Source: an uncultured Acidobacteriota bacterium (lineage in GTDB: Bacteria > Acidobacteriota > JAAYUB01). Taken from it: a DNA stretch of 64,000 bases. The stretch spans positions 160,386 to 224,385 of the forward strand of contig CAYPNP010000003.1 of the NCBI GenBank assembly GCA_964412195.1, written 5' to 3'. Each line of letters opens with the position of its first letter. Within the stretch, counting starts at the first letter, position 1. This document shows, piece after piece, positions 8,908 to 56,785 of this stretch. The position numbers were made by a program, and so were the translations under genes. The notes beneath the pieces were generated by a model, which saw only the letters and a list, made by a program, of their open reading frames with translations, made no database searches and was not told where the DNA came from.

Positions 8908-9035
8908 TTCTTCAATACTCTCCGTTCAATTCACACACTCGACCGGGACGGACATCGGAAATCGGATTTCGGACATCGGCCTTTTACAGCCGATCCCCGA
9001 TGTCCGAAGTCCGATGTCCGACAATCGTGCCCGGG

Positions 9036-11505: not shown

Positions 11506-12789
11506 ATGGAACACGACGAGATCCTGCACTGGCTGACAGAGACCGGCGAAGCGGCGCTGGAGCAGCTCTGGCGCCGGGCCGACGAAGTCCGGCGCCGGCA
11601 CGTCGGCGACGCGGTCCACCTGCGCGGGCTGGTGGAGTTCTCCAACCACTGCGCCCGGCAGTGCGGGTACTGCGGCATCCGGGCCGGCAACACCCGGCTG
11701 GCGCGCTACCGGATGAGCGCCGACGAGATCCTGGAGTGCGCCCGGCTGGCCGCCCGGCTGGGCTACGGCACGGTCGTCCTGCAGTCCGGCGAGGACCCCG
11801 GCACCCGGCGCGCCTGGATGGCGGACGTGGTCCGGCGGATCCGCGCGGAAACGGGGCTGGCGGTGACGCTCAGCCTGGGTGAGCGCAGCGACGCCGACCT
11901 GCGGGCGTGGCGCGAGGCCGGCGCCGGCCGGTACCTCCTGCGGTTCGAGACCTCCAACCCGGTTCTCTTCCGGAAGATCCACCCGCCCCGGCGCGGCCGC
12001 GGGAGCGACCGGATCGCCCTGCTGCGTCGGTTGCGAGGCCTCGGCTACGAGGTCGGCAGCGGGGCCATGATCGGTATCCCCGGCCAGACGTACGGTGACC
12101 TCGCCCGGGACCTCGAGCTGTTCAGGGAGCTGGACCTGGACATGATCGGAGTCGGGCCGTTCCTCCCTCATCCTGCTACGCCTCTGGGTCAACCAGAGGA
12201 CGCGGGGACGGGGGGACGGGGAGACGGGGGGACGAGCCGGATCGAACATCGAACATCGAACATTGAACATCGAACATCGAACTCAATCCGCGATCCGCAC
12301 TCCGCAAACCGGGAACTCACCACAAAGGCACAAAGAACACAAAGACAAGATTGGGATTCCAATTCGAAATCCGCGATCCGCAATCCGAGATCCGATGTCC
12401 GAGATCCGATGTCCGAAGATCGCACTCCGCATTCCGCACTCCGCACTCCGCATGATTCCGAACAGGTTCCCAACTCGGAATTGATGACCTACAAGGTGGT
12501 GGCGCTGGCCCGGCTGATCTGTCCGGACGCCAACATCCCCAGCACCACGGCGCTGGCCACGGTCAACCGGGAGTCCGGACGCGAGCTGGGTCTGCAGCGG
12601 GGCGCCAATGTCGTCATGCCCAACCTGACGCCGCCGCGCTACCGGGCCGGTTACGAAATCTACCCGGCCAAGGCCTGCCTCCAGGAAACGCCGGAGCAAT
12701 GCCACGGCTGCCTGCTGGCGCGCATCGCGTCCATCGGCCGGACCGTGGGCGAGGGGCCGGGGGAGTCTCCCCGATTCAGGAAGCGGTGA
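11506..12789 (+). CDS. radical SAM protein of the HydE/BioB/ThiH family carrying an in-frame insertion of about 97 codons of heptamer-repeat origin (function may be disrupted)
   Basis: EFSNHCARQCGYCGIR CX3CX2C radical SAM motif; HydE-like C-terminus ICPDANIPSTTALAT...GANVVMPNLTP; start MEHDEIL chosen because the first 27 codons of the ORF lie in repeat DNA. Confidence 0.65.
   Translation: MEHDEILHWLTETGEAALEQLWRRADEVRRRHVGDAVHLRGLVEFSNHCARQCGYCGIRAGNTRLARYRMSADEILECARLAARLGYGTVVLQSGEDPGTRRAWMADVVRRIRAETGLAVTLSLGERSDADLRAWREAGAGRYLLRFETSNPVLFRKIHPPRRGRGSDRIALLRRLRGLGYEVGSGAMIGIPGQTYGDLARDLELFRELDLDMIGVGPFLPHPATPLGQPEDAGTGGRGDGGTSRIEHRTSNIEHRTSNSIRDPHSANRELTTKAQRTQRQDWDSNSKSAIRNPRSDVRDPMSEDRTPHSALRTPHDSEQVPNSELMTYKVVALARLICPDANIPSTTALATVNRESGRELGLQRGANVVMPNLTPPRYRAGYEIYPAKACLQETPEQCHGCLLARIASIGRTVGEGPGESPRFRKR
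12190..12480. repeat. intragenic repeat module: CGAACAT, CCGAGAT/CCGATGT, CACAAAG and CACTCCG heptamer arrays inserted in frame in the radical SAM gene
   Basis: atcgaacatcgaacatcgaacattgaacatcgaacatcgaac translates as IEHRTSNIEHRTSN; ccgagatccgatgtccgagatccgatgtccga; cgcactccgcattccgcactccgcactccgca. Confidence 0.8.
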
Positions 12790-12794
12790 GACAC

Positions 12795-12945
12795 TGGATC
12801 GTCTCTCTCGTGTGAATTGATTCAATTGCGGATTGCGGATTGCGAATTGAACGGATTGCGGATTTCGGATTGCGGATTGAAACCTAGGCTTGTCTTTGTG
12901 TCCTTTGTGCCTTCGTGGTGAGTTCCCGGCTTGCGGCTTGAGGTT
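12795..12945. repeat. GCGGATT heptamer array plus CTTTGTG array, inverted relative to the intragenic module
   Basis: ttgcggattgcggattgcgaattgaacggattgcggatttcggattgcggatt; 12893-12930 is the reverse complement of 12311-12350. Confidence 0.7.
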
Positions 12946-21099: not shown

Positions 21100-21235
21100 C
21101 GCCGGGCAAACCATTTGTCATTTGTCATTGGCCAATTGCCATTTTCCATTTTTCCTTAACGGCCGGATCCTGACTCCGATTTTCTGAAATGAACAATGAC
21201 AACTGGCAAATGGCAAATGACAAATGGATTGCTTA
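21100..21235. repeat. AT-rich palindromic ATTTGTC/ATTGGCC heptamer element at convergent junction
   Basis: gtcatttgtcattggccaattgccatttt ... aacaatgacaactggcaaatggcaaatgacaaatgg, inverted arms; the same family recurs at 1555-1608. Confidence 0.65.
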
Positions 21236-21262: not shown

Positions 21263-22144
21263 TTACAGAAGAGTACGGGTAGCGGTAGAGGGATCGTCGA
21301 GGTCCAGCCGGACCAGCGCCAGCTCCGGCCCGTCGTGGGCGGCCGACAGGCAGGCCGTCCGCCCGACAGACTCCCGCCATGAACCCGTTAAGCGCGCCGA
21401 CTCGTGGACGTGCCCGTGCAGGGTCAGCATCGGCTGGCGCTTCTCGATGAACCGGCGGATGGCGATGCTGCCCACGTGGACGTCCAGCGGCGCGTGGTCC
21501 ACCATCTTCCCGTCCAGCGCGGCCCGGTCCAGCGCCGTGTCGTAGGGCGGGGCGTGGAACAGCCACACCGCGCGGGACTGGTCGGCGCCGCCGGCCAGCT
21601 CCTGCAGGTCGCGGGCGATGGTGCGCTGCTCGACCTCGTGCGGGTCCGCCGGGACCGTGCGGAAGCCTTCGTCCGGCGGGACGCAGCCCGGGTCCACGAA
21701 GCGCGACACGTCGTAGCGCTCCCAATCCTTGAGCTGGAACGGTGTGGGGGGGACGTAGGCGTAGCCATACACCCGGACTGCTCCCAGATCGAACTGCCGG
21801 GCGTGGGCGTATTCCCAGAGCCCTTCCGACTCCAGGTCCCGGATGGCGGGCTCCTCGCCGCGGGCGTCGTCGTTGCCCAGGATCAGGAACAGCCGGGGAT
21901 AGGCGCTTTCCAGCGCCAGGCGGAGCCGCTCCAGCTCTTGGGCGAGGAAATCCCGGATGAAGTGGTCGCCCTCCGGCAGGCCCGCCGCGGCAAAGAGGCC
22001 GGAGGGCAGCAGGTCGCCGCCGAGGAACACTGCCGCCGGCCGCTCCGCCTCTACGGCGGCAAAGAGTTTGCGGTAGCGGTCCACCCGCCCGTGCAGATCG
22101 GAAACGAAGAGAGCTTTTGTCACCCGGCCACCTCGCCGATTCAA
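21263..22144 (-). CDS. metallophosphoesterase (calcineurin-like)
   Basis: FVSDLHG, GGDLL, GNDD, GHVHE phosphoesterase motifs. Confidence 0.75.
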   Translation of the reverse strand: MNRRGGRVTKALFVSDLHGRVDRYRKLFAAVEAERPAAVFLGGDLLPSGLFAAAGLPEGDHFIRDFLAQELERLRLALESAYPRLFLILGNDDARGEEPAIRDLESEGLWEYAHARQFDLGAVRVYGYAYVPPTPFQLKDWERYDVSRFVDPGCVPPDEGFRTVPADPHEVEQRTIARDLQELAGGADQSRAVWLFHAPPYDTALDRAALDGKMVDHAPLDVHVGSIAIRRFIEKRQPMLTLHGHVHESARLTGSWRESVGRTACLSAAHDGPELALVRLDLDDPSTATRTLL

Positions 22145-22548
22145 AGCGGGTATGCAAGAACACCCAGTTTTTGAAAATCCTTCTGATTGAATGTCGCGAC
22201 GGCATCAGTCCCGGACAGCAGTGCGTTGGCGGCGACATAGGCGTCAGCGAATTCGCCGCCGCTGTTCCGGGCCAACTCCAGTGCCTTGATCACCAGGTCC
22301 TCGTCGGTCACCGTCATCCCGGGGAAGGCCAGGATCCGCTCCAGTACGTCTACTACCCGGTCCGGTTTCTGCTTGTAGGCCGACCGCAGGGTCCAGGCCA
22401 ATTCGAAGCAGACCGGCGGTCCAGTGATCAGCTCGATCTGACCGCCCTCCGCGTCCAGGAACAACCGGGTGGCCTTCTCGTGCTGACCCTGGTCGTCCCG
22501 GGTGAAAAAGCGCAGGAACACGTTTGTGTCGACGAACACCTTCTTCAT
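22141..22548 (-). CDS. PIN-domain toxin VapC
   Basis: MKKVFVDTNVFLRFF with conserved acidic residues; overlaps the downstream gene by 4 nt. Confidence 0.8.
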   Translation of the reverse strand: MKKVFVDTNVFLRFFTRDDQGQHEKATRLFLDAEGGQIELITGPPVCFELAWTLRSAYKQKPDRVVDVLERILAFPGMTVTDEDLVIKALELARNSGGEFADAYVAANALLSGTDAVATFNQKDFQKLGVLAYPL

Positions 22549-22550
22549 CG

Positions 22551-22778
22551 CTAGCCTCGCGACTTCCGGCTCGCGGCCCGGATCATCAGCTCCTTCTCCC
22601 GGGGATTGGATTTTCCGAGGAAGCCCTTCAGGGAGAGAAAGCTCTCGGTCGGCCGGATGAGAATGCCATGCTCCCCGACTTCAATGATCACCCGGTCGTG
22701 GGGCTTGATGCCGACGGCGTTCCGGGCCTCGACGGGCAGAGTGACCTGACCTTTGGACGACACCTTGGAATATTTCAT
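22551..22778 (-). CDS. AbrB/MazE/SpoVT-family antitoxin (VapB)
   Basis: 75 aa; swapped-hairpin motif KGQVTLPVEARNAVGIKPHDRV; 2 nt upstream of vapC. Confidence 0.75.
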   Translation of the reverse strand: MKYSKVSSKGQVTLPVEARNAVGIKPHDRVIIEVGEHGILIRPTESFLSLKGFLGKSNPREKELMIRAASRKSRG

Positions 22779-25139: not shown

Positions 25140-25418
25140 GATGGCTCGATAATGCGGAGTGCGGAGTGCGGAATGTGGAGTGCGCGCAGTAGAGAAGTTG
25201 TCACTCGAAATCCGAGTCGAGTCAGGCAGTTGCGTTTTCCACCGGATGGATGGTGCTCCTGACAGATACTCTAGATTTAATTCCCGCTTTGCACTCCGCA
25301 TTCCGCACTCCGCACTCCGCATTATGGGAGATCCCATCAACCGCCGATTCGTGGTGAATTGACATCCTGCAAGATTTTCGGTAGAGTGCGGCCTGCAAAA
25401 TCGACGAGGTGAGACGCC

Positions 25419-25892: not shown

Positions 25893-28714
<2,822 letters not shown>

Positions 28715-28900
28715 TTGCGAATTGCGAATTGCGAATTGAGTCCGTGCTTACTCGAAAATAGAAACTTCCGATCGTACTCGTCGATCGTAATCGTGCTCGT
28801 AATCGTAATCGTAATCGCAACAATCAATTACACGCAGAGACGCAGAGTCCGCAGAGACAATCCCTAACGCGGATGAACACGGATTCCCGCCGATCCGGCC
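28715..28900. repeat. composite repeat: GCGAATT array, CGTAATC array, CGCAGAG array
   Basis: ttgcgaattgcgaattgcgaattg; cgtgctcgtaatcgtaatcgtaatcg; cacgcagagacgcagagtccgcagagac; homologous to the module at 23580-23650. Confidence 0.75.
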
Positions 28901-29057: not shown

Positions 29058-29273
29058 ATGAAAAGAGAATTCAGCGTGATCATCGAAAGGGATCGCAAGG
29101 GATTGTTCATCGCATCCGTTCCAGAATTGAAAGGATGTTTCACTCAAGCCAAATCATTGGATACATTGATGAAAAGGGTGCGGGAGGCCATCGAATTGTG
29201 CCTTGAAGTGGAAGGCGAGCCAATCACCGCGGTCGATTTCATCGGCGTTCAGCGGGTGGCCATCGGTTCATGA
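29058..29273 (+). CDS. HicB-family antitoxin (UPF0150)
   Basis: 71 aa; FSVIIERDRKGLFIASVPELKGCFTQAKSLDTLMKRVREAIELCLE HicB/UPF0150 pattern; low local GC. Confidence 0.7.
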   Translation: MKREFSVIIERDRKGLFIASVPELKGCFTQAKSLDTLMKRVREAIELCLEVEGEPITAVDFIGVQRVAIGS

Positions 29274-29494
29274 CCAGGATGCCCCGAATCACCGGCAAGA
29301 CCCTGGTGCGGGCGCTCGGAAAAGCCGGTTTCCTGGTGATCCGGACGAAGGGTAGCCACCATTACCTCAGTCATCCGGACGGCCGTTGGGTTGTGGTGCC
29401 TGTCCACACCCGGGAGAATTTAGGCCCCGGTTTGATCTCCAAAATAATCCACATCTGCGACTTGTCTATGGGGGAGTTACGCAAACTTCTGTAG
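29270..29494 (+). CDS. HicA-family mRNA interferase toxin (YcfA-like)
   Basis: 74 aa; ITGKTLVRALGKAGFLVIRTKGSHHYLSHPDGRWVVVPVH HicA signature; 4-nt overlap with hicB. Confidence 0.75.
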   Translation: MTRMPRITGKTLVRALGKAGFLVIRTKGSHHYLSHPDGRWVVVPVHTRENLGPGLISKIIHICDLSMGELRKLL

Positions 29495-29615: not shown

Positions 29616-30278
29616 GTGAAACGCCAATACCTGGGAGATTCCAAGGACAGCTTCAAGTGGGACTACCACGACTTCCTGGCGGCGGCGCTGGGCCTGCCCC
29701 GGCTGCACGTGGCGCTCATGCTCACGCCGGACGACGGGGGCACGGACGGCCGGTCGGACCCGGCGCGGTTCCCCGCCCGCGCGCCGGTGCTGGACTTCTG
29801 CCGGGACCTGCGGGCCCGCCGGGACATCGGAAGAATTACCGGCCTGCCGGAGCGAACGGGCGCGCCGTACCGATTGACGTTGCACCGGGGCGAATCACTC
29901 TTCACCGGGACGGATCGGACCGGGTACTTTTCCGGCTTCGACGGGGATGGGGGCGCGCTGGTCTTCCTCGATCCGGACAACGGCTTCGAGCCGGAACGGT
30001 CCTGCTCGGACAAGCACGTGCGCTACGGCGAGGTGGCGCGAGTCCTGGAGCAGCTGTCCGAGGATTCCGTCGTCAGCGTGTTTCAGCACTTCCGGCGGGT
30101 GTCGTTCCCGGACGATTTCGCCCGGATCCGGCATAGACTGGGAGCGATCCATTCCACCGCGGTCTGTTGGCACTCGCTGATGTTCGTGGCGGCAGGCAGG
30201 TCGGAGCGGGCGATCCGGCGGGTGGCCGCGGCGAACCGGGACTACGCGCGGCGGCACCCGGTCCGGGTGCTGGTCTAG
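29616..30278 (+). CDS. uncharacterized 220-aa protein adjacent to HicBA
   Basis: GTG start; no recognised motif; acidic DxD-containing core (FLDPDNGFE); high-GC codon bias supports coding. Confidence 0.45.
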   Translation: MKRQYLGDSKDSFKWDYHDFLAAALGLPRLHVALMLTPDDGGTDGRSDPARFPARAPVLDFCRDLRARRDIGRITGLPERTGAPYRLTLHRGESLFTGTDRTGYFSGFDGDGGALVFLDPDNGFEPERSCSDKHVRYGEVARVLEQLSEDSVVSVFQHFRRVSFPDDFARIRHRLGAIHSTAVCWHSLMFVAAGRSERAIRRVAAANRDYARRHPVRVLV

Positions 30279-30389: not shown

Positions 30390-31238
30390 ATGCTCCCCGT
30401 CGCCGGCGAGTTGTGGGGCCTCCCGATTTACAGTTACGGCCTGGCCGTGTCGGTGGCCCTGCTCGTCTGCCTGCCGCTGGCCTGGCGGATCCGGGAGCGC
30501 GCCGGGCTCACGCCGGGTGACCTGCTGAATCTCTGCCTGCTGGGAATCGCGTCGCTGCTGTTCGTCCCCAAGCTCTGGACCATGATCCTGGCCCGGGATT
30601 TCAGCCCGGGGGCGTGGCGCCTGCTGCTATCGCCTTGGCGGCAGGAGGGCTTCGCGCTTGGGCCCGTGGCCGTCGTCGCCGCGCTGGGCTGGGCGGCTTA
30701 CGGCCGGTGGAAGCGGATCCCGCTCCTGCCCGCCATCGACGCCTTCCTGCCGGTGCTGCTGCTGGGCCTGGCGATCCAGCGCCTCGGATGCTTCCTGGCC
30801 GGCTGCTGCTACGGCCGGCCCACCGGGTTGCCCTGGGGCATCCGTTTCCCGGCGGACTCCCCGGCCGGCCGAGCCTTTCCGGGCGAGGCCGTCCACCCCA
30901 CCCAGTTGTACTACCTGCTGGTGTTCCTGTTGGTGGCGGGCCTGTTGTGGCTGGGGCGGGGATTCCTCCGGCGGCAGGGTGCGGCCACGGCCGCCGGTCT
31001 CCTGGGCACGGGAATCGCCTTTGTCGCCATTACCACCCTGCGCGGTGACCTGGAGCCGGGAGCCCGCTCCCTGGCTGCCATGGCCTCCCCGCTGGTGGCG
31101 CTCGGGCTCGCCGTCGCGGGCCTGGTCCTGGGCGCATGCATCGCCTGGCAAAAATACCGGAACGATCGGAAGTCGGAATCCACCGCTGGCCGGAACCGTC
31201 CGCCGCCAGCCTTGAACTCAGGGAGGAGGAACCCATGA
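30390..31238 (+). CDS. lgt: prolipoprotein diacylglyceryl transferase
   Basis: Lgt signature region GCCYGRPT...HPTQLY; multiple transmembrane helices. Confidence 0.85.
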   Translation: MLPVAGELWGLPIYSYGLAVSVALLVCLPLAWRIRERAGLTPGDLLNLCLLGIASLLFVPKLWTMILARDFSPGAWRLLLSPWRQEGFALGPVAVVAALGWAAYGRWKRIPLLPAIDAFLPVLLLGLAIQRLGCFLAGCCYGRPTGLPWGIRFPADSPAGRAFPGEAVHPTQLYYLLVFLLVAGLLWLGRGFLRRQGAATAAGLLGTGIAFVAITTLRGDLEPGARSLAAMASPLVALGLAVAGLVLGACIAWQKYRNDRKSESTAGRNRPPPALNSGRRNP

Positions 31239-33304
31239 AAAACGCGTGGCAGATCGCTCTCCTGATCGCCTTCGCCGCGGCGATCCCCTACATCGGATCG
31301 GGCTGCTCCAGCACGTCGTCCGGCAAGCTGGGCAACAGCGCGGCCATCTATCCGGACGGCAGCGGGCGCATGACCCTCTGGATGGGCGGCACCAAGCCCG
31401 CGGTGATCGATGAGTGGGAGACAGAAACGGTGTCCGGTTCCTACTCGTTCGTCGACTACCACCAGGACGACGCCACTTACGACGTCACCGCCCGGATCAC
31501 GGCCGTTGGACTGACTCCCGCAGGTGTCGGCGGGGTAGGCATCCTGCAGTTTCCCTCCGACGCCTCCGGTTTCAGCGCCACCTACAACGACTACCAAGGG
31601 CATTCCGGAACGCTGACGGTGACGGCGGGCCTGGCCTCGGTGCCGATCACCCCCACCCGCACCCTGACGGCCGAGGCCGGCCAGCAGCTCGTGGTCGTCC
31701 AGGTCCCGCCCGCACTGGTGCCGGAAAACGGTCAGCCCGAGAAGTGGTATGAGAACCAGCTCAACTTCACCGTCAATCCCACTCGGACGATCCAAGTCAA
31801 GGCGGTCATGGCGGCCACGGTGAGCCAAGGCGGAACCCTCTACTACCTGCCGGTGTGCCCGGTGGTCTCCTCGCTGGCGGACGTGCCGGCCATGGACATC
31901 GAGCTGGGCAACGGGCCGAAGGAATTCCGGTTCCCCCACCTCCAGGACCTGCCCCACCCCGGCGGCATCCAGGTCTACGACGTGAAGCACGACCAGGTGT
32001 ACGCGGCGCGCTACTTCCCGCGGCTGGGCTACACCCCGGGCACCAGCACCGAGGGGCTCGGCTTCGTCAACACCGGCAGCCAGGCGATCCAGGCCACGTT
32101 CCAGGCCTACGATGCCGCGGGGAATTCGGCGGGGACGTCGGCGCCCATGACGTGGCCGGCGCAGAACCAGGGGGCCTACCAGGCGGAGGGGGTGCTCGGG
32201 TTGACTCAGGCCACCGACGGCTGGGTGGAGGCGCGGCTGTCGCGCGGGGAGATGCTGGGCTTCTTCCTCACCCAGTGGTTCCCGGGCGGGGTCCTGTCCG
32301 GCCTGGATGGCGCCAGCGTGTTCACCCGGGCCATGACCCGGGGGATCATCCCGCGGATCCAGATGCTGAACGGGTACTCCACCGAGGTGCGGATCGTCAA
32401 CACCAGCGGAATGGGCTACAATGTGGGTTATCAACGGATCCCCGGCACCGCGTTCGGCTTTTGCGGCAGCCTGCCCATTCCGGCCCGCGGGATGGCGACG
32501 GCGGATCTGGCAGGCTGCGGCGCGTACGACGGCGCCTTATTCCTCGAGGGCACCAGCCAGTTCATCGCGAACGCCACGATCCGCTACGGGAACGACTGCC
32601 TCAGCTCGGTCAATGTCATACCCTTTGAGGAGGCCGCCGAGTCGCTCTACGCCCCGCACATCGTCCTCTTCCCGGGAATATATTTCACCTCGATCAACCT
32701 GTACAACACGGCAGCGACTGATGCCACGGTCCAGATCAGCCCCTTCAACGCCGACGGCACGCCCATGGCCAGCCCATTCAACACGACCATTGAAGGCCAG
32801 CATGTCGTGACCTTGACCGACACCCAGCTGGGCCTGCCGGCGGGGGTCAACAGCGACGGCTGGCTGAAGGTCACGTCGCCCGGCAAGCCCCTCATCGGGT
32901 GCATCACCTTCGGCGACCCGACGAACCACCGGTACGAGTCCACCTTGCCTCTGCAGCGCGAGGGGACCACCGATTTCTATTACGCCCAGGTGGCCACCGG
33001 CGACGTCGGCGGGGTGGTCTACGGCACCGGCATCGCCATCGTCAATCCGAGCGAAACCGCGTCAGTCCAGGTCACCATCGAGGTGCACAGGAGCGACGGC
33101 TCGTCCAACGGCAACCAGGTGGTCCGCACCCTGGCGCCCAAGGAGAAGTACGTCCGCCAGCTGTCGCAGATCGAGGGCATCGGCGCCCTGCAGAACCAGG
33201 CCAGCGGCTACATCCACGTTTCGGCCACCGGGCCGGTCCTGTCGTTCGAGCTGTTCTTCGACCAGAGCGTGAACTTCCTGAGCGCCGTCGAGGCGCAGCA
33301 CTGA
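31235..33304 (+). CDS. large secreted lipoprotein (689 aa), beta-rich, function unknown
   Basis: RBS GGGAGGAGG then ATG; signal peptide with lipobox-like IGSGC; ATGA overlap with the lgt stop. Confidence 0.6.
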   Translation: MKNAWQIALLIAFAAAIPYIGSGCSSTSSGKLGNSAAIYPDGSGRMTLWMGGTKPAVIDEWETETVSGSYSFVDYHQDDATYDVTARITAVGLTPAGVGGVGILQFPSDASGFSATYNDYQGHSGTLTVTAGLASVPITPTRTLTAEAGQQLVVVQVPPALVPENGQPEKWYENQLNFTVNPTRTIQVKAVMAATVSQGGTLYYLPVCPVVSSLADVPAMDIELGNGPKEFRFPHLQDLPHPGGIQVYDVKHDQVYAARYFPRLGYTPGTSTEGLGFVNTGSQAIQATFQAYDAAGNSAGTSAPMTWPAQNQGAYQAEGVLGLTQATDGWVEARLSRGEMLGFFLTQWFPGGVLSGLDGASVFTRAMTRGIIPRIQMLNGYSTEVRIVNTSGMGYNVGYQRIPGTAFGFCGSLPIPARGMATADLAGCGAYDGALFLEGTSQFIANATIRYGNDCLSSVNVIPFEEAAESLYAPHIVLFPGIYFTSINLYNTAATDATVQISPFNADGTPMASPFNTTIEGQHVVTLTDTQLGLPAGVNSDGWLKVTSPGKPLIGCITFGDPTNHRYESTLPLQREGTTDFYYAQVATGDVGGVVYGTGIAIVNPSETASVQVTIEVHRSDGSSNGNQVVRTLAPKEKYVRQLSQIEGIGALQNQASGYIHVSATGPVLSFELFFDQSVNFLSAVEAQH

Positions 33305-33352: not shown

Positions 33353-33482
33353 GGATTTACGCCGGCAAGTTTCAGCATAAAATGTTGTATATCAACAAAT
33401 CATAAAATCCCTGAAAAGTTGTATCCGCCCGCATCAGGTGTCATCCAACCCCCGCAGAGTACTCTGAACCAAAGGAGGTTCC

Positions 33483-33941
33483 ATGAAAGCCAAGATGCTG
33501 ATGTCACTGGTTTTCCTGGCGGCGTTGGCCGTCCTGCCGCTCGGCAGTGACGCCAAATCCAAGGGGGCCGTGGCCAGTTCCGATAAATCGTCCGGCAAGA
33601 TCCTCGCCGAGAAGTGCACGTCCTGCGGAAAGAGCGTGCAGATGAAGCACCTGTCCGGGGACGAGTGGGAGATCCTGTGCCCCACCTGCAATCAGCCGAT
33701 GACCATGACCAAGCTTGCGGCCAACAATTTCTCCGCCCGGTGCGAGGGCTGCCGCAAGGAGATCGCCCTGGAGAAGCAGCAAAACGGGACCATGATGCTG
33801 AAGTGCCCCGGCTGCGGTCACGAGATGGCCATGAAGTGCCCGGATTGCGGCGACAAAGGCACCCTGAAAGTCGCCAGCCTCTACGGCGGCACGACCCGCC
33901 TGGAGTGCGCCAATTGCCACAGGCAAGTCGACGTGAAGTAG
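33483..33941 (+). CDS. secreted cysteine-rich protein with six CxxC motifs (three zinc-ribbon-like pairs), paralog 1
   Basis: Signal peptide; CTSCGK, CPTCNQ, CEGCRK, CPGCGH, CPDCGD, CANCHR; RBS AAAGGAGG. Confidence 0.6.
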   Translation: MKAKMLMSLVFLAALAVLPLGSDAKSKGAVASSDKSSGKILAEKCTSCGKSVQMKHLSGDEWEILCPTCNQPMTMTKLAANNFSARCEGCRKEIALEKQQNGTMMLKCPGCGHEMAMKCPDCGDKGTLKVASLYGGTTRLECANCHRQVDVK

Positions 33942-33984
33942 CGTCGATCCGTCTCCAGCCCCGCGGAAAGCGCGGGGGCCGGCC

Positions 33985-34022
33985 GGGCTCATTGCGCCCG
34001 GCCATTTTTTTTACCTTCCTGG
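33985..34022 (+). terminator. rho-independent terminator
   Basis: GGCCGGGCTCATTGCGCCCGGCC followed by ATTTTTTTT. Confidence 0.7.
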
Positions 34023-34168
34023 GCGTGCCGCATGGCTGGAATCCCGGGTCCGAGCAAGGAGAAGGCCCCGTCGATAATAATCTTTCGAAAAGATATAGAT
34101 TTTGGGGATCCCTCCCGGCCGGCCTTCATCCAATGCCAACAGTTAACTCGGCTGCACAAGGAGGGGCT

Positions 34169-34621
34169 ATGAAGATCAATGCATGGAAGATCGTGTTGTT
34201 CACGTTGGCGATGGGGATCCTGGCGCTCGGGGGGGACTCCGGCCAGATCACACCAGTGGCTTCCCATTCCGCGGTGTCGGCCGTCCGGACCGAAAAGTGC
34301 CCGGACTGCGGCCAGACCATCAAGATGCGGCAGATCGACCACGAGACCTGGGAGTTCTTTTGCCCGAAGTGCGGGGAAGCGATGCGGACGGAGCCGACCA
34401 GCGTCAGCACCCTCACCGCGAGGTGCCCGTCCGGCGACATGGAAATCCGGCTGACCAGGGTGCGGAAAGACACAGTGAATTTCGAGTGTCCGGGGTGCAA
34501 GCACCTGATGGTCCTGAAATGCCCGGATTGCGGCCAGGGGGTGCTGAAGTATCAGAAGGTGTCCGGGGAATCCACCAGCGCGCAGTGCGCCAGTTGCCAC
34601 AAGGCGGTGGACGTGAAGTGA
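34169..34621 (+). CDS. secreted cysteine-rich CxxC-repeat protein, paralog 2
   Basis: RBS AAGGAGG; signal peptide; CPDCGQ, CPKCGE, CPGCKH, CPDCGQ, CASCHK; same C-terminus as paralog 1 (...VDVK); the ORF-track start at 33614 is rejected. Confidence 0.6.
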   Translation: MKINAWKIVLFTLAMGILALGGDSGQITPVASHSAVSAVRTEKCPDCGQTIKMRQIDHETWEFFCPKCGEAMRTEPTSVSTLTARCPSGDMEIRLTRVRKDTVNFECPGCKHLMVLKCPDCGQGVLKYQKVSGESTSAQCASCHKAVDVK

Positions 34622-34770
34622 ACCGGCCCGCCCGGCGGCGCGGCTGGAGAGGCACGGAAGGGCCGGGGTTTGCGCCCCGGCCCTCTTATTTCCGGTGGTT
34701 GCGGGCCGGGAGGGGCGATGTATAATGGGAGCTGTTCTCGATCAATCCTGCCCGCACCGGATGGAAGCGC

Positions 34771-35892
34771 ATGGCCGGCGACAAGCCCCCCTCGATGGAC
34801 GAACCCGGCGGGGACCCCAACCTGCTCCGGGTTCTGTGGCGGGACCTGGTCCACGGCGATTTTGACCGGATGTTCCGCCGCGACCTGAAGGATTTTTACT
34901 ACTTCTATCTCGACGACGACCAGCGCCGCCGCCTGATGAACATGTCGCGCTTCAAGCAGGTGCTGTTCGTCCTGGGCTGGGTCGCACGGGAACTCTTCCT
35001 CCGTTTGGCGCCCGCCCGGCGGATCCTGTTGGTCGCCTGCCTGCTGGTTTTCCTCTGGGGGAGCGTCCGGGTCACCATGGGCGACACTCGCGTCACCATC
35101 GACCTCCGGATCCTCAGCTTCGCCGGCCTGCTCTTCGTCTTGATGCTGGAGCTGAAGGACAAGCTGCTGGCCCGCGACGAGCTGGCGGTGGGACGCGCCG
35201 TCCAGCTGGCCCTCCTGCCGGACCGGAACCCGGAACTGGCCGGCTGGTCCATCTGGCTCTACACGCGGCCGGCCAACGACGTCGGCGGTGACCTGGTGGA
35301 TTACCTGGCCCTCCCCGGCGGGCGCCTCGGGCTGATGCTCGGGGACGTGGCCGGCAAGGGGCTGGGGGCCGCCCTGCTGATGGCCAAGCTCCAGGCGACC
35401 CTGCGGGCGCTCGCCCCCGAGGCGGCGGCGCTGGGGGGGCTCGGCGGGCACCTCAACGCGATCTTCTGCCGCGACGGCCTGCCGAACCGCTTCGCCACGC
35501 TGGTCTACCTGGAGCTGCACCCCGGCTCGGGGACCGTCCACCTACTGAACGCCGGGCATCTCCCCCCGCTGGTCCTGGGCGCCGACGGCCCCTCGGAGAT
35601 GGAACCGGTGGCGCCTCCGCTGGGAATCCTGCCGGAGGCCGAGTATCCGGAACAGCGCCTGGTGATCGGCCCCGGCGACAGCCTGGTGGCGTACTCCGAC
35701 GGGGTGACCGACGCCCGCAACGCCGCCGGCGAGATGTTCGGCGACGACCGCCTGCGCGCCCTGCTGGCCGAATCGCGGGCGCTCGGCCCGGCCGACCTGG
35801 GCATGCGGCTGCTGTCGGAGATCCTGAAGTTCGCTGGCAACGAGCGCCTGCCCGACGACCTGTCGCTCATCATCCTGCAAAGACTGGACTAG
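34771..35892 (+). CDS. membrane-anchored PP2C-family Ser/Thr phosphatase (SpoIIE-type domain)
   Basis: N-terminal region with two transmembrane helices; PP2C motifs GGDLVDY, GDVAGKG, YSDGVTD. Confidence 0.8.
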   Translation: MAGDKPPSMDEPGGDPNLLRVLWRDLVHGDFDRMFRRDLKDFYYFYLDDDQRRRLMNMSRFKQVLFVLGWVARELFLRLAPARRILLVACLLVFLWGSVRVTMGDTRVTIDLRILSFAGLLFVLMLELKDKLLARDELAVGRAVQLALLPDRNPELAGWSIWLYTRPANDVGGDLVDYLALPGGRLGLMLGDVAGKGLGAALLMAKLQATLRALAPEAAALGGLGGHLNAIFCRDGLPNRFATLVYLELHPGSGTVHLLNAGHLPPLVLGADGPSEMEPVAPPLGILPEAEYPEQRLVIGPGDSLVAYSDGVTDARNAAGEMFGDDRLRALLAESRALGPADLGMRLLSEILKFAGNERLPDDLSLIILQRLD

Positions 35893-36132
35893 GTGAGTCG
35901 ATTCGGAGTGCGATTCCGGACCTCGGACCTCGGGTTTCGGACCTCGGCGGAACGCCCCACAACCGATCTTCGATAATTGACGCCGGCATCCACGGTTTGA
36001 TGCCCGATGTCCGACATCCGAAGTCCGATGTCCGAAACCCGCTGGATTCGGGATCATCAAGAAAAAACAGTTGACAGCATGGGGCCGGATCTGTAATATT
36101 CTTCGTTCTTGTCGACGAATTCTGGAGGAATC

Positions 36133-38699: not shown

Positions 38700-38900
38700 T
38701 TCAAACGCTCGAAGAGGGGCTCGGGACTCGGGGCTCGGGATTCGAGGCTTGGGTCTGGGTGCATCGTATTCCAAACCCAAACCCTGCATATCGATCTCCG
38801 CATACTCAACTCCGACATATTCCAACCCCAACCTCCAACCCCGAGCCCCGAGTCCCGAGCCCCGAACCCCGAGTCCCGAGACCCGCCTCGACTCCTCATG
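38700..38900. repeat. CCCGAGC/CCCGAGT heptamer arrays in inverted orientation around an AT-richer core
   Basis: gggctcgggactcggggctcgggattcgagg ... ccccgagccccgagtcccgagccccgaaccccgagtcccgagacc. Confidence 0.75.
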
Positions 38901-41317: not shown

Positions 41318-41490
41318 CAATTGCGGATTGCGGATTGCGGATTGAGGATTGAACCGCAAACCGCGCAAAGGATGCAAAGCGGAATTCAACGCTGATCCAC
41401 GCAGATTGATTATGATCTGATATGATCATTTAACAGGTTTGGATCATAAAGATCATAAAATATCCGCGTGAATCTGCGTTGAATGAGATC
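41318..41490 (+). mobile_element. composite MITE-like dispersed element, copy 1: GCGGATT array, CAAAG-rich segment, about 100-bp AT-rich core with terminal inverted repeats
   Basis: Core ttcaacgctgatccacgcagattgattatgat...ggatcataaagatcataaaatatccgcgtgaatctgcgttgaat is homologous over its whole length to 55441-55545 (second copy, opposite orientation). Confidence 0.75.
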
Positions 41491-50792: not shown

Positions 50793-51448
50793 TGCGCAGG
50801 AAGACTCTTACCCTATGGCGGACGGTGTGGCTGGCGGCCCTGCTGGCGGCGGGCGGTGGCGCGGCGGGCGCGGCCGGGCTGTCGCTGCGGGACCGGGTCG
50901 TGGCCGACGTGGCGGGGGAGCCCGTCACCCTCCGCCAGGTGCTCATCCTGGCCAGCCTGGAAGCCGGCCGGAAGGTCGACCCGTCGGAAGGGGGGCTCGT
51001 GGCGGCCGCGGTCCAGCGGGAGATCACCCAGGTCATCATCATGCGGGACATCGCCCGGAATCCGTCCTACGAGGAGGAGAAACCCGACGAGGCCGCGATG
51101 CGGCAAGCCCTCGAGCAGAAGTGCGGCGGGCCGGAGGCATTGCGCCGGCTGCAGGAGGAGCTCCAGCTGAAAGACGAGACGCTCGAGAGCTTCCTGCAGC
51201 GGCAGGCCCTGGCGGTCGCCTTTGTCCGGCTGCATTTCAATCCGTTCGTCTATGTGTCCGAGGAGGAGGCCCGGAAATACTATGCGGAGGTGTTCCTGCC
51301 CCGCCTCGGCGCCGGCGCCGCGCCGCCGGACTTTGAGAGCGTGCAGGCGAAAATCGTGGAGATCCTGCAGCAGCGCAAGATCAACGCCGAGTTCGACCAG
51401 TGGCTGGAGCGGCAGAGGAAGGAACTTCGAGTCAAGATCATTGAATGA
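50792..51448 (+). CDS. periplasmic protein downstream of bamA (SurA-N/Skp-like chaperone?)
   Basis: ATGA overlap with the bamA stop; signal peptide; helical; position equivalent to skp in Omp85 operons. Confidence 0.45.
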   Translation: MRRKTLTLWRTVWLAALLAAGGGAAGAAGLSLRDRVVADVAGEPVTLRQVLILASLEAGRKVDPSEGGLVAAAVQREITQVIIMRDIARNPSYEEEKPDEAAMRQALEQKCGGPEALRRLQEELQLKDETLESFLQRQALAVAFVRLHFNPFVYVSEEEARKYYAEVFLPRLGAGAAPPDFESVQAKIVEILQQRKINAEFDQWLERQRKELRVKIIE

Positions 51449-51560
51449 TTGCGAATTTCGAATTGCGAATTGCGGATTGTGGATTGCGGATTGCGGATTT
51501 TAAATTTCAAATCCTCAAACTCTTTTTCTCTGAATCCACCCCGTCCACCCGTCCACCCCG
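51449..51560. repeat. GCGAATT/GCGGATT heptamer array plus CCACCCG array
   Basis: tgcgaatttcgaattgcgaattgcggattgtggattgcggattgcggatt; ccaccccgtccacccgtccaccccgtccactctgtccacccggtcc. Confidence 0.75.
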
Positions 51561-51587
51561 TCCACTCTGTCCACCCGGTCCTCCGCT

Positions 51588-55439: not shown

Positions 55440-55630
55440 CCATTCAACGCAGATCCACGCTGATCTATTATGATTAATTAGGATCATTTAAAAGGTCTGG
55501 ATCATAAATGATCTTAAAAAGTCTGCGTCCATCTGCGTCGAATTCCCCTTTGCGTCCTTCGCGCCTTTGCGGTTCGATTCGAAATTCGCAATTCGCAATC
55601 CGCAATCCGCAATCCGCAATCCGCAATCCC
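55440..55630 (-). mobile_element. composite MITE-like dispersed element, copy 2 (inverted relative to copy 1)
   Basis: ttcaacgcagatccacgctgatctattatgattaattaggatcatttaaaaggtctggatcataaatgatcttaaaaagtctgcgtccatctgcgtcgaat followed by cgcaatccgcaatccgcaatccgcaatcc. Confidence 0.75.
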
Positions 55631-55633
55631 CAA

Positions 55634-56785
55634 TCAGAGGGAGCGCTCTAAAATCTCTGCCAATTCAGCCGGGGTCAGCGCCACCGGATTGCCCTGCATG
55701 CTGCTGGCCACCCGGGCGCGGTCCACCAGCGTGGGGATGTCGGTGGCGGTGACTCCGTAGGAGCGCAGGGGCGGGATCCGCAGGTCCCGGCACAGGCCGT
55801 CCACCCAGGCGATGGCCTTGGCGGCGCCGGGCGCCTGGCCGGTCAGGAGCCGGCCGAGCGAATCCATCCGGCGCAAGGCGTCGCTGCCGGGATCCCGCTC
55901 CCGCAGCGCCCGGTGGTTGGCTTCCAGCACCCGCGGCAGCAGCCGGGCGCACGCGGCGCCGTGGGGCGCCGGAAACATGCCGCCGAGGGGCGCCGCCAGG
56001 CCGTGCACCGCCCCCAGCCGGGCGTTGGCCAGGGCCATCCCGCCCTCGAGGCTCGCCAGGGAGAGGTCCTCGCGGGCGGCCGCGTCGTAACCGTCGAGGC
56101 AGGCGCGGCGCAGGCTGCGGGACACCCGGGGGATGCCGTCGCGGCACAGCCCGTCGACGAGCGGATTGGGGCGGTTGCAGAGGAACGGCTCCACCAGTTG
56201 AGTCAGGGCGTCTAGGCCGGTGCTGGCGGTGATCTCCGGGGGCAGGCCGTAGGTCAGTTCGGGGTCCACCAGGGCCACCCGGGGCAGCATCAGCGGGCTG
56301 CGCAGGCTGACCTTGACTTTGTGCTCCGGCGAGGCAAGCACGGCGTTGCGGGTGGCTTCCGATCCGGTGCCAGCGGTGGTCGGGACGGCAATCAGGGGAA
56401 CGGATGGCTTGACCAGCGGCCGGCCCTGGCCGACGACTTCGAGATACTCGAGCGGATCGCCGCCGTTGGCCAGCAGGGCCGCGACCGCTTTGGCCGTGTC
56501 CAGCGCGCTGCCGCCGCCGAAGCCGATGACCAGGTCGGTCCCTTCCGCGTCGGCCTGCGCCAGCGCCGTCCGGACCGTGTTCACCGACGGCTCGCCGGCG
56601 GACGAGAACACGGCGGCGGGCAGGCCGGCCTCCCGGAGCAGGGCCAGGAGCCGGCCGGCCCGGTCCGGCGAGGCGCCCGTGACCACCAGCGGCTTCCGCC
56701 CGAGGGAAGCGGCCAGCGGCCCGATTTCCTTCAAAGAGCCGGCCCCGAACAGGATCCGTTGCGCGGTGGCGAATTCGAATGGCAT
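55634..56785 (-). CDS. iron-containing (group III) alcohol dehydrogenase
   Basis: GGGSALDTAK NAD-binding motif; conserved His metal ligands; 383 aa. Confidence 0.85.
   Translation of the reverse strand: MPFEFATAQRILFGAGSLKEIGPLAASLGRKPLVVTGASPDRAGRLLALLREAGLPAAVFSSAGEPSVNTVRTALAQADAEGTDLVIGFGGGSALDTAKAVAALLANGGDPLEYLEVVGQGRPLVKPSVPLIAVPTTAGTGSEATRNAVLASPEHKVKVSLRSPLMLPRVALVDPELTYGLPPEITASTGLDALTQLVEPFLCNRPNPLVDGLCRDGIPRVSRSLRRACLDGYDAAAREDLSLASLEGGMALANARLGAVHGLAAPLGGMFPAPHGAACARLLPRVLEANHRALRERDPGSDALRRMDSLGRLLTGQAPGAAKAIAWVDGLCRDLRIPPLRSYGVTATDIPTLVDRARVASSMQGNPVALTPAELAEILERSL

Follow-up and report, generated by a model that had tools for sequence, protein, structure and literature searches.

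A very rare family of putatively exported proteins with three tandem zinc-ribbon-type repeats, encoded by paired genes in an uncultured Acidobacteriota bacterium

Inspection of a 64,000-nucleotide stretch of contig CAYPNP010000003.1 from an uncultured Acidobacteriota bacterium (GenBank assembly GCA_964412195.1, positions 160,386 to 224,385; hereafter the window) drew attention to two adjacent genes, designated A and B, for small cysteine-rich proteins with apparent signal peptides. An initial annotation, made from the sequence alone, described their products as tandem paralogs of 150 residues, about 35% identical, with six CxxC motifs each. It suggested that these rubredoxin-like zinc ribbons and a two-transmembrane PP2C phosphatase, encoded immediately downstream, make up a metal- or redox-sensing module coupled to Ser/Thr dephosphorylation. 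The family to which A and B belong is very rare and uncharacterised. We regard the two proteins as a new, probably exported variation on zinc-ribbon repeats, and our best guess at their role is binding of soft metals in the periplasm.

Gene A (33483-33941, plus strand) encodes a 152-residue precursor with orthologs P0001-P0007, and gene B (34169-34621, plus strand) a 150-residue paralog with orthologs P0008-P0011; the length first given for both holds for B but not for A. BLASTP aligns A and B over their full length at 37% identity (E 4e-38), close to the earlier estimate, and identity over the mature domain is 39%. Both proteins end in C-x2-C-H-x-V-D-V-K, as had been noticed. The start Met of gene B is the same Met in its orthologs. 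Third-position G+C content (GC3) in the called frames of A and B is 0.87-0.88, in a genome of 65% GC. Since GC3 favors the plus strand, antisense open reading frames at 33400-34005 and 33989-34600 were rejected as high-GC artefacts. To judge from this codon usage, and from the retention of all Cys positions in relatives down to 28% identity, the cysteine pattern of A and B is not a product of chance.

Each gene has its own ribosome-binding site, as initially annotated: AAGGAGG, read from the sequence, occupies 33472-33478 for gene A and 34158-34164 for gene B (both plus strand), in each case 4 nt before the ATG (33483 and 34169). Upstream of gene A, a consensus scan finds a putative promoter, TTTACG-16-TAAAAT, with 9 of 12 matches (33356-33383, plus strand); it sits 3' of a terminator-like hairpin that trails the gene for a 689-residue predicted lipoprotein. 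The strong terminator reported between A and B is indeed there: a terminator scan places two GC hairpins at 33959-34012 (plus strand), the second of them (33981-34003) followed by T8 and the other just upstream, with a minimum free energy of -35.3 kcal/mol by RNA folding. Downstream of gene B, terminator scan and RNA folding identify a terminator-like hairpin at 34659-34684 (plus strand) of 11 bp, nine of them GC pairs, with a weak U tract. The PP2C gene probably has its own promoter at 34699-34726 (plus strand), TTGCGG-16-TATAAT with a TG directly 5' of the -10 element (extended -10). This candidate was read by eye, scores under the -35 threshold of the promoter scan, and ends 45 nt before the PP2C start. 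Because of the terminators after A and B and the PP2C-proximal promoter, the simplest reading is that A, B, and the PP2C gene would form three separate transcription units.

Protein A contains twelve Cys residues in six CxxC motifs, at residues 45, 66, 87, 108, 119, and 142, the last of them in a C-terminal CANCH. The count of six motifs given for each protein is therefore correct for A but not for B, which has eleven Cys: five CxxC motifs, a degenerate third knuckle (C86-P-S-G-D), and a C-terminal CASCH. Because the third knuckle reads CP[STA]GD or CPSDG in all four B-type orthologs (P0008-P0011), its loss is not a sequencing slip. Spacing from knuckle to knuckle is 21-21-21-11-23 residues. 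The layout of A runs from a signal peptide (residues 1 to about 22/24) through a disordered linker (to about residue 39) to three zinc-ribbon repeats. When the family alignment was split into three modules of about 34 residues, hhalign related every pair of modules with 93-97% probability. Each protein therefore consists of three tandem repeats of one unit, with the pattern [KR]-C-x2-C-x(17-20)-C-x2-C-x3-h-x-h, where h is hydrophobic. A divergent relative, P0016, retains a single Cys per knuckle in its first two ribbons and has knuckles 5 and 6 intact; this paired loss, from knuckles 1+2 and 3+4, supports the grouping of knuckles as (1,2), (3,4), and (5,6).

Structure prediction, which the initial annotation had proposed as a way to distinguish a zinc ribbon from a disulfide-rich fold, gave an all-beta model. 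AlphaFold2, working for A from a shallow alignment of 10 sequences, assigned residues 40-152 predicted local distance difference test (pLDDT) values above 90. In that model, each knuckle is flanked by two of the 11 strands, and residues 1-36 lack order. For B, the strand order is unchanged, though modeled less confidently (mean pLDDT 71). We are confident from the model that the mature part of A would adopt an all-beta fold. In both models, pairs of knuckles flank a beta hairpin, as in zinc ribbons.

The N-termini of A and B begin with a Lys-rich segment (MKAK in A, MKINAWK in B), continue with 14 to 16 hydrophobic residues and then small residues, and reach Asp23. All 13 aligned relatives keep this plan, with one or two Lys or Arg, a hydrophobic core of 14 to 16 residues, small residues, and a nearly invariant Asp, which fits signal-peptidase cleavage near residue 22-24. 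This is the tripartite organization of a signal peptide, with apparent small residues at -1 and -3, conserved in homologs. Similar signal sequences occur on other exported-looking proteins of the window. Two relatives carry lipoprotein boxes instead, P0016 (AAGC) and P0021 (LILGC). Both are colinear with the family over full length (E 1e-12 and 1e-8, respectively, against a library of 1.8 billion proteins), and the weaker matches P0044 and P0067 also have such boxes (LVGC and LAGC). Because lipoproteins are exported by definition, the ribbon domain in this family should lie outside the cytoplasmic membrane. We infer that A and B are exported by the Sec pathway and cleaved, and the signal peptides of the initial annotation hold up across the family.

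P0016 deserves description in its own right. This divergent lipoprotein (locus L077:627-1391) is 12.5% Met, ends in MIMMM, and has only one Cys left in four of the six knuckles. Its gene lies 45 bp 5' of a fragment of an outer-membrane efflux-factor gene of the TolC/CusC type (PF02321, 22.9 bits, just over the cut-off).

The family is small by any search. A word-index search of 5.8 billion clusters returned seven A-type and four B-type entries. An exhaustive hidden Markov model (HMM) search of 1.84 billion representatives, of the kind recommended at the outset, found nine proteins at E<=1e-10 and added five full-length relatives (P0012, P0013, P0014, P0016, and P0021) and one 70-residue fragment. 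Beyond this core, the matches inspected from the exhaustive search were generic multi-ribbon repeat proteins. In all, the searches of billions of proteins yielded about 15 sequence clusters of the family. A scan of GTDB species representatives with the family alignment gave no match, and a metagenome scan found one short contig, from the same clade. Searches of plasmids and phages by tblastn gave no match, and there is therefore no sign of a mobile element. RelA similarity (72%) places the host in the Acidobacteriota, and its nearest genomes are the metagenome-assembled genomes AnMBR.bin219 and Go_SlDig_bin_198, whose isolate names suggest an anaerobic bioreactor or sludge digester as the habitat of the host. 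In one ENA contig (L003:9938-12437), the homologs of A, B, PP2C, and RelA all contain frameshifts, probably long-read assembly errors. Because of these, the 170-residue P0007, with its missing knuckles, was set aside as an artefact rather than a real variant.

A second tandem pair, in another high-GC lineage, consists of P0014 and its neighbor (L008:7277-7729) at locus L008:7277-8450, found also in L009 and L010. The two proteins, of 150 and 149 residues, are 55% identical to each other and 28-33% identical to A or B, and both have six CxxC motifs and CxxCH. The contrast between these levels of identity indicates that tandem duplication occurred independently in two lineages. That it did so hints at a benefit from two diverged copies, which might form a heterodimer or have two specificities. 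The P0014 pair adjoins a gene for a PDZ-domain protease and lies 3' of a mobB-like gene. P0013, a single-copy gene, lies between a gene for Lhr helicase and genes for a peptide-binding protein and peptidases (M16/M28). The sequence around P0012, P0021, P0067, and, its efflux-factor fragment apart, P0016 was either short or gave no informative neighbors.

Searches against characterized families and structures placed A and B near zinc ribbons in general and within no family in particular. The best Pfam match of A, to PF13717 (Zn_ribbon_4), scores 27.2 bits against a cut-off of 30.3, and a match to PF12773 (DZR) 24.0 against 27.3, both below threshold. For B, only PF17848 (Zn_ribbon_ACC) passes its cut-off (26.6 versus 24.5), over 15 residues that amount to one knuckle. 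Every NCBIfam match of A or B falls under its cut-off, and no cytochrome, rubredoxin, or metallochaperone model appears among the Pfam and NCBIfam matches. Assignment to a well-characterized family, which would have overturned the initial view of these proteins as unusual, was thus looked for in Pfam and NCBIfam and not found. Rubredoxin was rejected, since PF00301 is not in the match lists and there is only a 14.5-bit match to the rubredoxin-like knuckle of rubrerythrin; of the description "rubredoxin-like zinc ribbons", the zinc-ribbon-type knuckles stand and the rubredoxin part does not. Metallothionein and anti-sigma-type zinc finger readings were also rejected. Searches of PADLOC and PHROGs gave knuckle-level noise only. 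Profile search of PDB sequences gave only weak matches, most of them Cys4 ribbons or zinc fingers otherwise rich in Cys, including eS27, the LIM-type cysteine-rich protein CRP2, Csl4, ACC-beta, and aS21. Foldseek against the PDB found no convincing match (best E 0.08); the top matches include two-ribbon RNA polymerase subunits, and none is a cytochrome. A JGI label of DUF1610, "translation", on P0006, P0009, and P0010 was rejected as misleading automatic annotation, because an exported protein cannot act in translation. No exported zinc-ribbon family was found described in the literature searched.

Tentatively, we prefer the reading that A and B are Sec-exported mini-proteins stabilized by metal-thiolate sites. 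In this scheme, the separately transcribed genes would yield proteins of about 13-14 kDa that leave the cytoplasm of an anaerobic Acidobacteriota bacterium by the Sec pathway. The mature protein would consist of a short flexible N-terminal linker and a compact all-beta domain of three ribbons of about 34 residues, in each of which two CxxC knuckles would join to form one four-cysteine site. Metal, most likely Zn2+ or another soft metal, would be held in the ribbon sites, which would not all be oxidized to disulfides. A would have three such sites, and B two Cys4 sites and one Cys3/Asp site. The tandem pair would have arisen by local duplication, and the proteins might serve in the periplasm either as metal-stabilized modules for binding or to buffer or chaperone soft metals. 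We infer metal occupancy and a metal-handling role from several features. The knuckles are of the CPxCG type, as in proven Cys4 sites. B-type proteins retain an odd number of Cys (11), and in every ortholog the lost Cys90 goes with a change of Arg91 to Asp, as if one ligand had replaced another. Mature proteins of the family are enriched in Met (5.5% in A, 7.8% in P0012), P0016 combines its high Met content with an efflux-factor neighbor, and the host appears anaerobic. Nine exported-looking proteins of the window have 1, 2, 6, 12, 7, 2, 1, 9, and 1 Cys, without bias toward even numbers. Such a bias marks bacteria that form periplasmic disulfides, and anaerobic Deltaproteobacteria for the most part lack it (PMC2823432).

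Several observations weigh on the other side. Sec substrates fold outside the cytoplasm, where Cys-rich proteins are usually disulfide-bonded, and the lone Cys that P0016 has in every knuckle of its first two ribbons would fit one disulfide staple per ribbon equally well. No metal-resistance genes were found in the contexts of P0013, P0014, and P0067 or in the 64-kb window, and the efflux neighbor of P0016, a distant relative, was seen once, on a contig of 1.4 kb. The metal model gives no role to the invariant His that follows the last CxxC. The A-B-PP2C genes, furthermore, are present or absent as a block by comparison with the nearest genomes (L011-L013).

The first of these observations leads to an alternative that we consider unlikely, namely that A and B are disulfide-stapled secreted mini-proteins that keep the ribbon scaffold with Cys pairs oxidized and free of metal. 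As basic, stable beta domains (net charge is +3 to +6), they might act as binding proteins, for example by inhibiting hydrolases that are secreted or sit in the envelope, or might have an antimicrobial or adhesive function. The signal peptide implies extracytoplasmic folding, P0016 has two Cys per ribbon in ribbons 1 and 2, and P0021 has extra Cys at strand positions. Only Cys is conserved family-wide, surfaces evolve fast (28-40% identity), and the tandem duplication in two lineages would suit such a role. Peptidase neighbors are also frequent, with M16/M28 near P0013, the PDZ protease beside the P0014 pair, and S9/M28 genes in the slot that A, B, and PP2C would occupy in L011 and L013, but these neighborhoods differ among loci, also in strand. 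Against oxidation stand the odd Cys count conserved in B orthologs, where Cys to Gly is accompanied by Arg to Asp, and the host lineage, which appears anaerobic and whose exported-looking proteins in the window lack the even-Cys bias. A different alternative keeps the metal and moves the ribbons: the N-terminal segment would be an uncleaved anchor and the proteins membrane-tethered intracellular zinc-ribbon proteins. Zinc ribbons are overwhelmingly cytoplasmic, the weak matches P0034 and P0068 have an N-terminal membrane segment before their ribbons with positive charges after it, and A also has Lys beyond the hydrophobic core. Nevertheless, positive charge is concentrated at the extreme N-terminus of A and B, acidic Asp follows the hydrophobic core, the -1 and -3 residues are small, and the homologs with a lipobox must be exported, and we give cytoplasmic ribbons very little credence. 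A further reading takes the C-terminal CxxCH as a haem c site, with A and B as small periplasmic mono-haem cytochromes that transfer electrons on a ribbon scaffold. All 12 aligned sequences of the core family, at identities as low as 28%, have CxxCH as other non-Cys positions drift, and the motif follows a Sec signal such as apocytochromes c have. Class II cytochromes c have their haem motif near the C-terminus, a placement to which that of CxxCH in A and B, seven residues from the end, is comparable, and Met115, a possible distal ligand, is conserved in most members. However, P0014 and P0012 have Leu in place of Met115, and in the divergent P0016 the motif reads CTGCR. In the AlphaFold2 model, CxxCH pairs with CPDC like any ribbon knuckle, and in the repeat alignment its His aligns with the Gly of "CPGCGH"; MJ0042-type ribbons often carry a His near the second knuckle. 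There is no match to a cytochrome in Pfam or NCBIfam, or in Foldseek against the PDB. No ccm/ccs, multi-haem, or other cytochrome genes are evident in the 64-kb window, by a count of CxxCH over predicted genes and Pfam searches of selected neighbors. A and B thus share export and CxxCH with c-type cytochromes, and lack similarity to a cytochrome family or fold and a conserved distal ligand. Haem attachment is highly improbable in our estimation. Still less probable is the extended form of the idea, in which A and B would found a new fold class of small periplasmic cytochromes, with haem beside Zn/Fe ribbon sites and a possible heterodimeric redox relay or sensor.

The block behavior of A, B, and PP2C bears on the module of the initial annotation, in which A and B would sense metal or redox state outside the cytoplasm, signal to the two-pass PP2C, and so control Ser/Thr dephosphorylation. 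The phosphatase itself was correctly described. Its gene (34771-35892, plus strand) encodes a 373-residue SpoIIE-type PP2C Ser/Thr phosphatase (PF07228, E 3e-49) with two hydrophobic segments by hydropathy, at about residues 84-102 and 112-128. The three genes are adjacent on the same strand, and their order is retained in close relatives (L001-L003 and L072), in one of which (L003) A-B-PP2C is kept although the upstream lgt and lipoprotein genes are absent. In L011-L013, synteny is conserved on both sides of the locus, with GT-RelA-L28 to one side and 689-residue lipoprotein-Lgt to the other. In L011 (10488-13669) and L013 (10486-13667), genes for an S9-like alpha/beta hydrolase and an M28-like peptidase, assigned by reading the sequences rather than by Pfam, replace A-B-PP2C; the slot between rpmB (L28) and the lipoprotein gene looks like a clean block replacement in conserved synteny. 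All loci with the adjacency come from one narrow clade of close relatives, however, and block behavior limited in this way is weak evidence for coupling. Co-occurrence across genomes, proposed with the initial annotation as a check, was not seen past that clade in the loci examined. The PP2C family gave 4752 matches at E<=1e-20, with more than 100 clusters of about 373 residues at 50-58% identity, so that orthologs in thousands stand against some 15 clusters of A and B. HMM searches of four PP2C ortholog loci (L073-L076, three look-ups) found no homolog of A or B, and no PP2C gene lies near P0013 or the P0014 pair, in two other lineages. Terminators follow both A and B, and the PP2C gene has its separate putative promoter. 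Because the loop between its hydrophobic segments, by hydropathy, is only about 10 residues, the phosphatase has no docking domain outside the membrane for such sensors, and no gene for a STAS protein, anti-sigma kinase, or Ser/Thr kinase was seen among the proteins scanned within about 12 kb. Neither sequence signals consistent with co-transcription nor co-occurrence across lineages were found, and coupling is not supported. Signaling from A and B to the phosphatase is very unlikely, and we regard the adjacent PP2C as a neighbor, not a partner.

The window has further features. Intergenic tandem arrays of a 7-bp unit, in 4 to 8 copies, occur at 2327-2491, 8949-9021, 12198-12453, 12814-12881, 21111-21227, 25153-25321, 28714-28817, 35917-36035, 38716-38885, 41320-41351, 51447-51581, and 55583-55635. 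Many are paired as reverse complements 20-120 bp apart (GAACATC...GATGTTC, TGCGGAG...CTCCGCA, GGGGCTC...CCCCGAG). The heptamer varies by site and the period is always 7. One array pair separates the PP2C stop from the L28 promoter, and a related genome has arrays of the same kind (L013:13674-14111). We know of no described element like these paired heptamer arrays. Rfam gave no match between 28 and 42 kb of the window. The 689-residue predicted lipoprotein upstream of gene A (31235-33304, plus strand, lipobox IGSGC) has no match in Pfam, NCBIfam, or PADLOC; its gene adjoins lgt (30390-31238), and the protein is conserved at 56-61% identity beside lgt in the nearest Acidobacteriota genomes. Toxin-antitoxin genes at 22141-22778 (minus strand) encode a PIN-domain toxin (PF01850) and a MazE/AbrB-type antitoxin (PF04014). 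A HicA toxin gene (PF07927) at 29270-29494 (plus strand) is followed by an open reading frame of 220 residues (29616-30278) that has no family match and is conserved in L003.

Cys4 zinc ribbons are viewed as modules of the cytoplasm. Their export to the periplasm, flagged as unusual in the initial annotation, does appear so in a family this rare and with no characterized match. A fixed three-ribbon exported domain that occurs also in lipoprotein versions would show that metal-thiolate ribbons are usable in the envelope of an anaerobe, and would define a new small extracytoplasmic domain whose confidently predicted fold has no convincing counterpart in the PDB by Foldseek. Digester sludge often carries heavy metals. 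If the preferred reading is right and the sites bind soft metals, the family would give digester communities a novel type of metal buffer or chaperone in the periplasm. Practical weight is limited by the extreme rarity of the family and its lack of conserved genomic partners.

Among known systems, the closest to A and B are the MJ0042/DZR ribbons (PF13717 and PF12773, clan Zn_Beta_Ribbon), which supply their best, though sub-threshold, Pfam matches. These ribbons likewise have two CxxC knuckles, often CPxCG, with a beta hairpin of about 17-20 residues between, and tandem repetition is common. Most known members are cytoplasmic, whereas the ribbons of A and B stand behind an apparently cleavable signal peptide and form a fixed three-repeat domain of about 115 residues with an invariant C-terminal CxxCH. 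Proteins of the DUF1610/aS21/HVO_2753 type are also small, with several CxxC knuckles, and yield weak matches to A and B (PRK14890, HVO_2753, and PDB entries 6skf and 9fhl; 23-31 bits against cut-offs of 61-80), but they have about 60 residues, reside in the cytoplasm, and associate with ribosomes or RNA. The neighboring phosphatase, for its part, shares the PF07228 domain and an N-terminal membrane anchor with the RsbU/SpoIIE membrane PP2Cs, from whose systems it differs in having neither adjacent partner-switching genes nor an extracytoplasmic sensor domain. CusF, SilE, and PcoE offer an analogy only, as small, Sec-exported, beta-rich or Met-rich periplasmic proteins with no similarity to A and B in sequence or fold; CusF binds metal through Met, His, and Trp ligands in an OB fold, in contrast to Cys4 ribbons. 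The cusF gene is a component of the cusCFBA operon. Core members of the A/B family have no efflux genes nearby, unlike CusF, but the P0016 gene, directly 5' of its outer-membrane efflux-factor gene, has a layout that resembles that of a cusF-like metal-efflux accessory gene.

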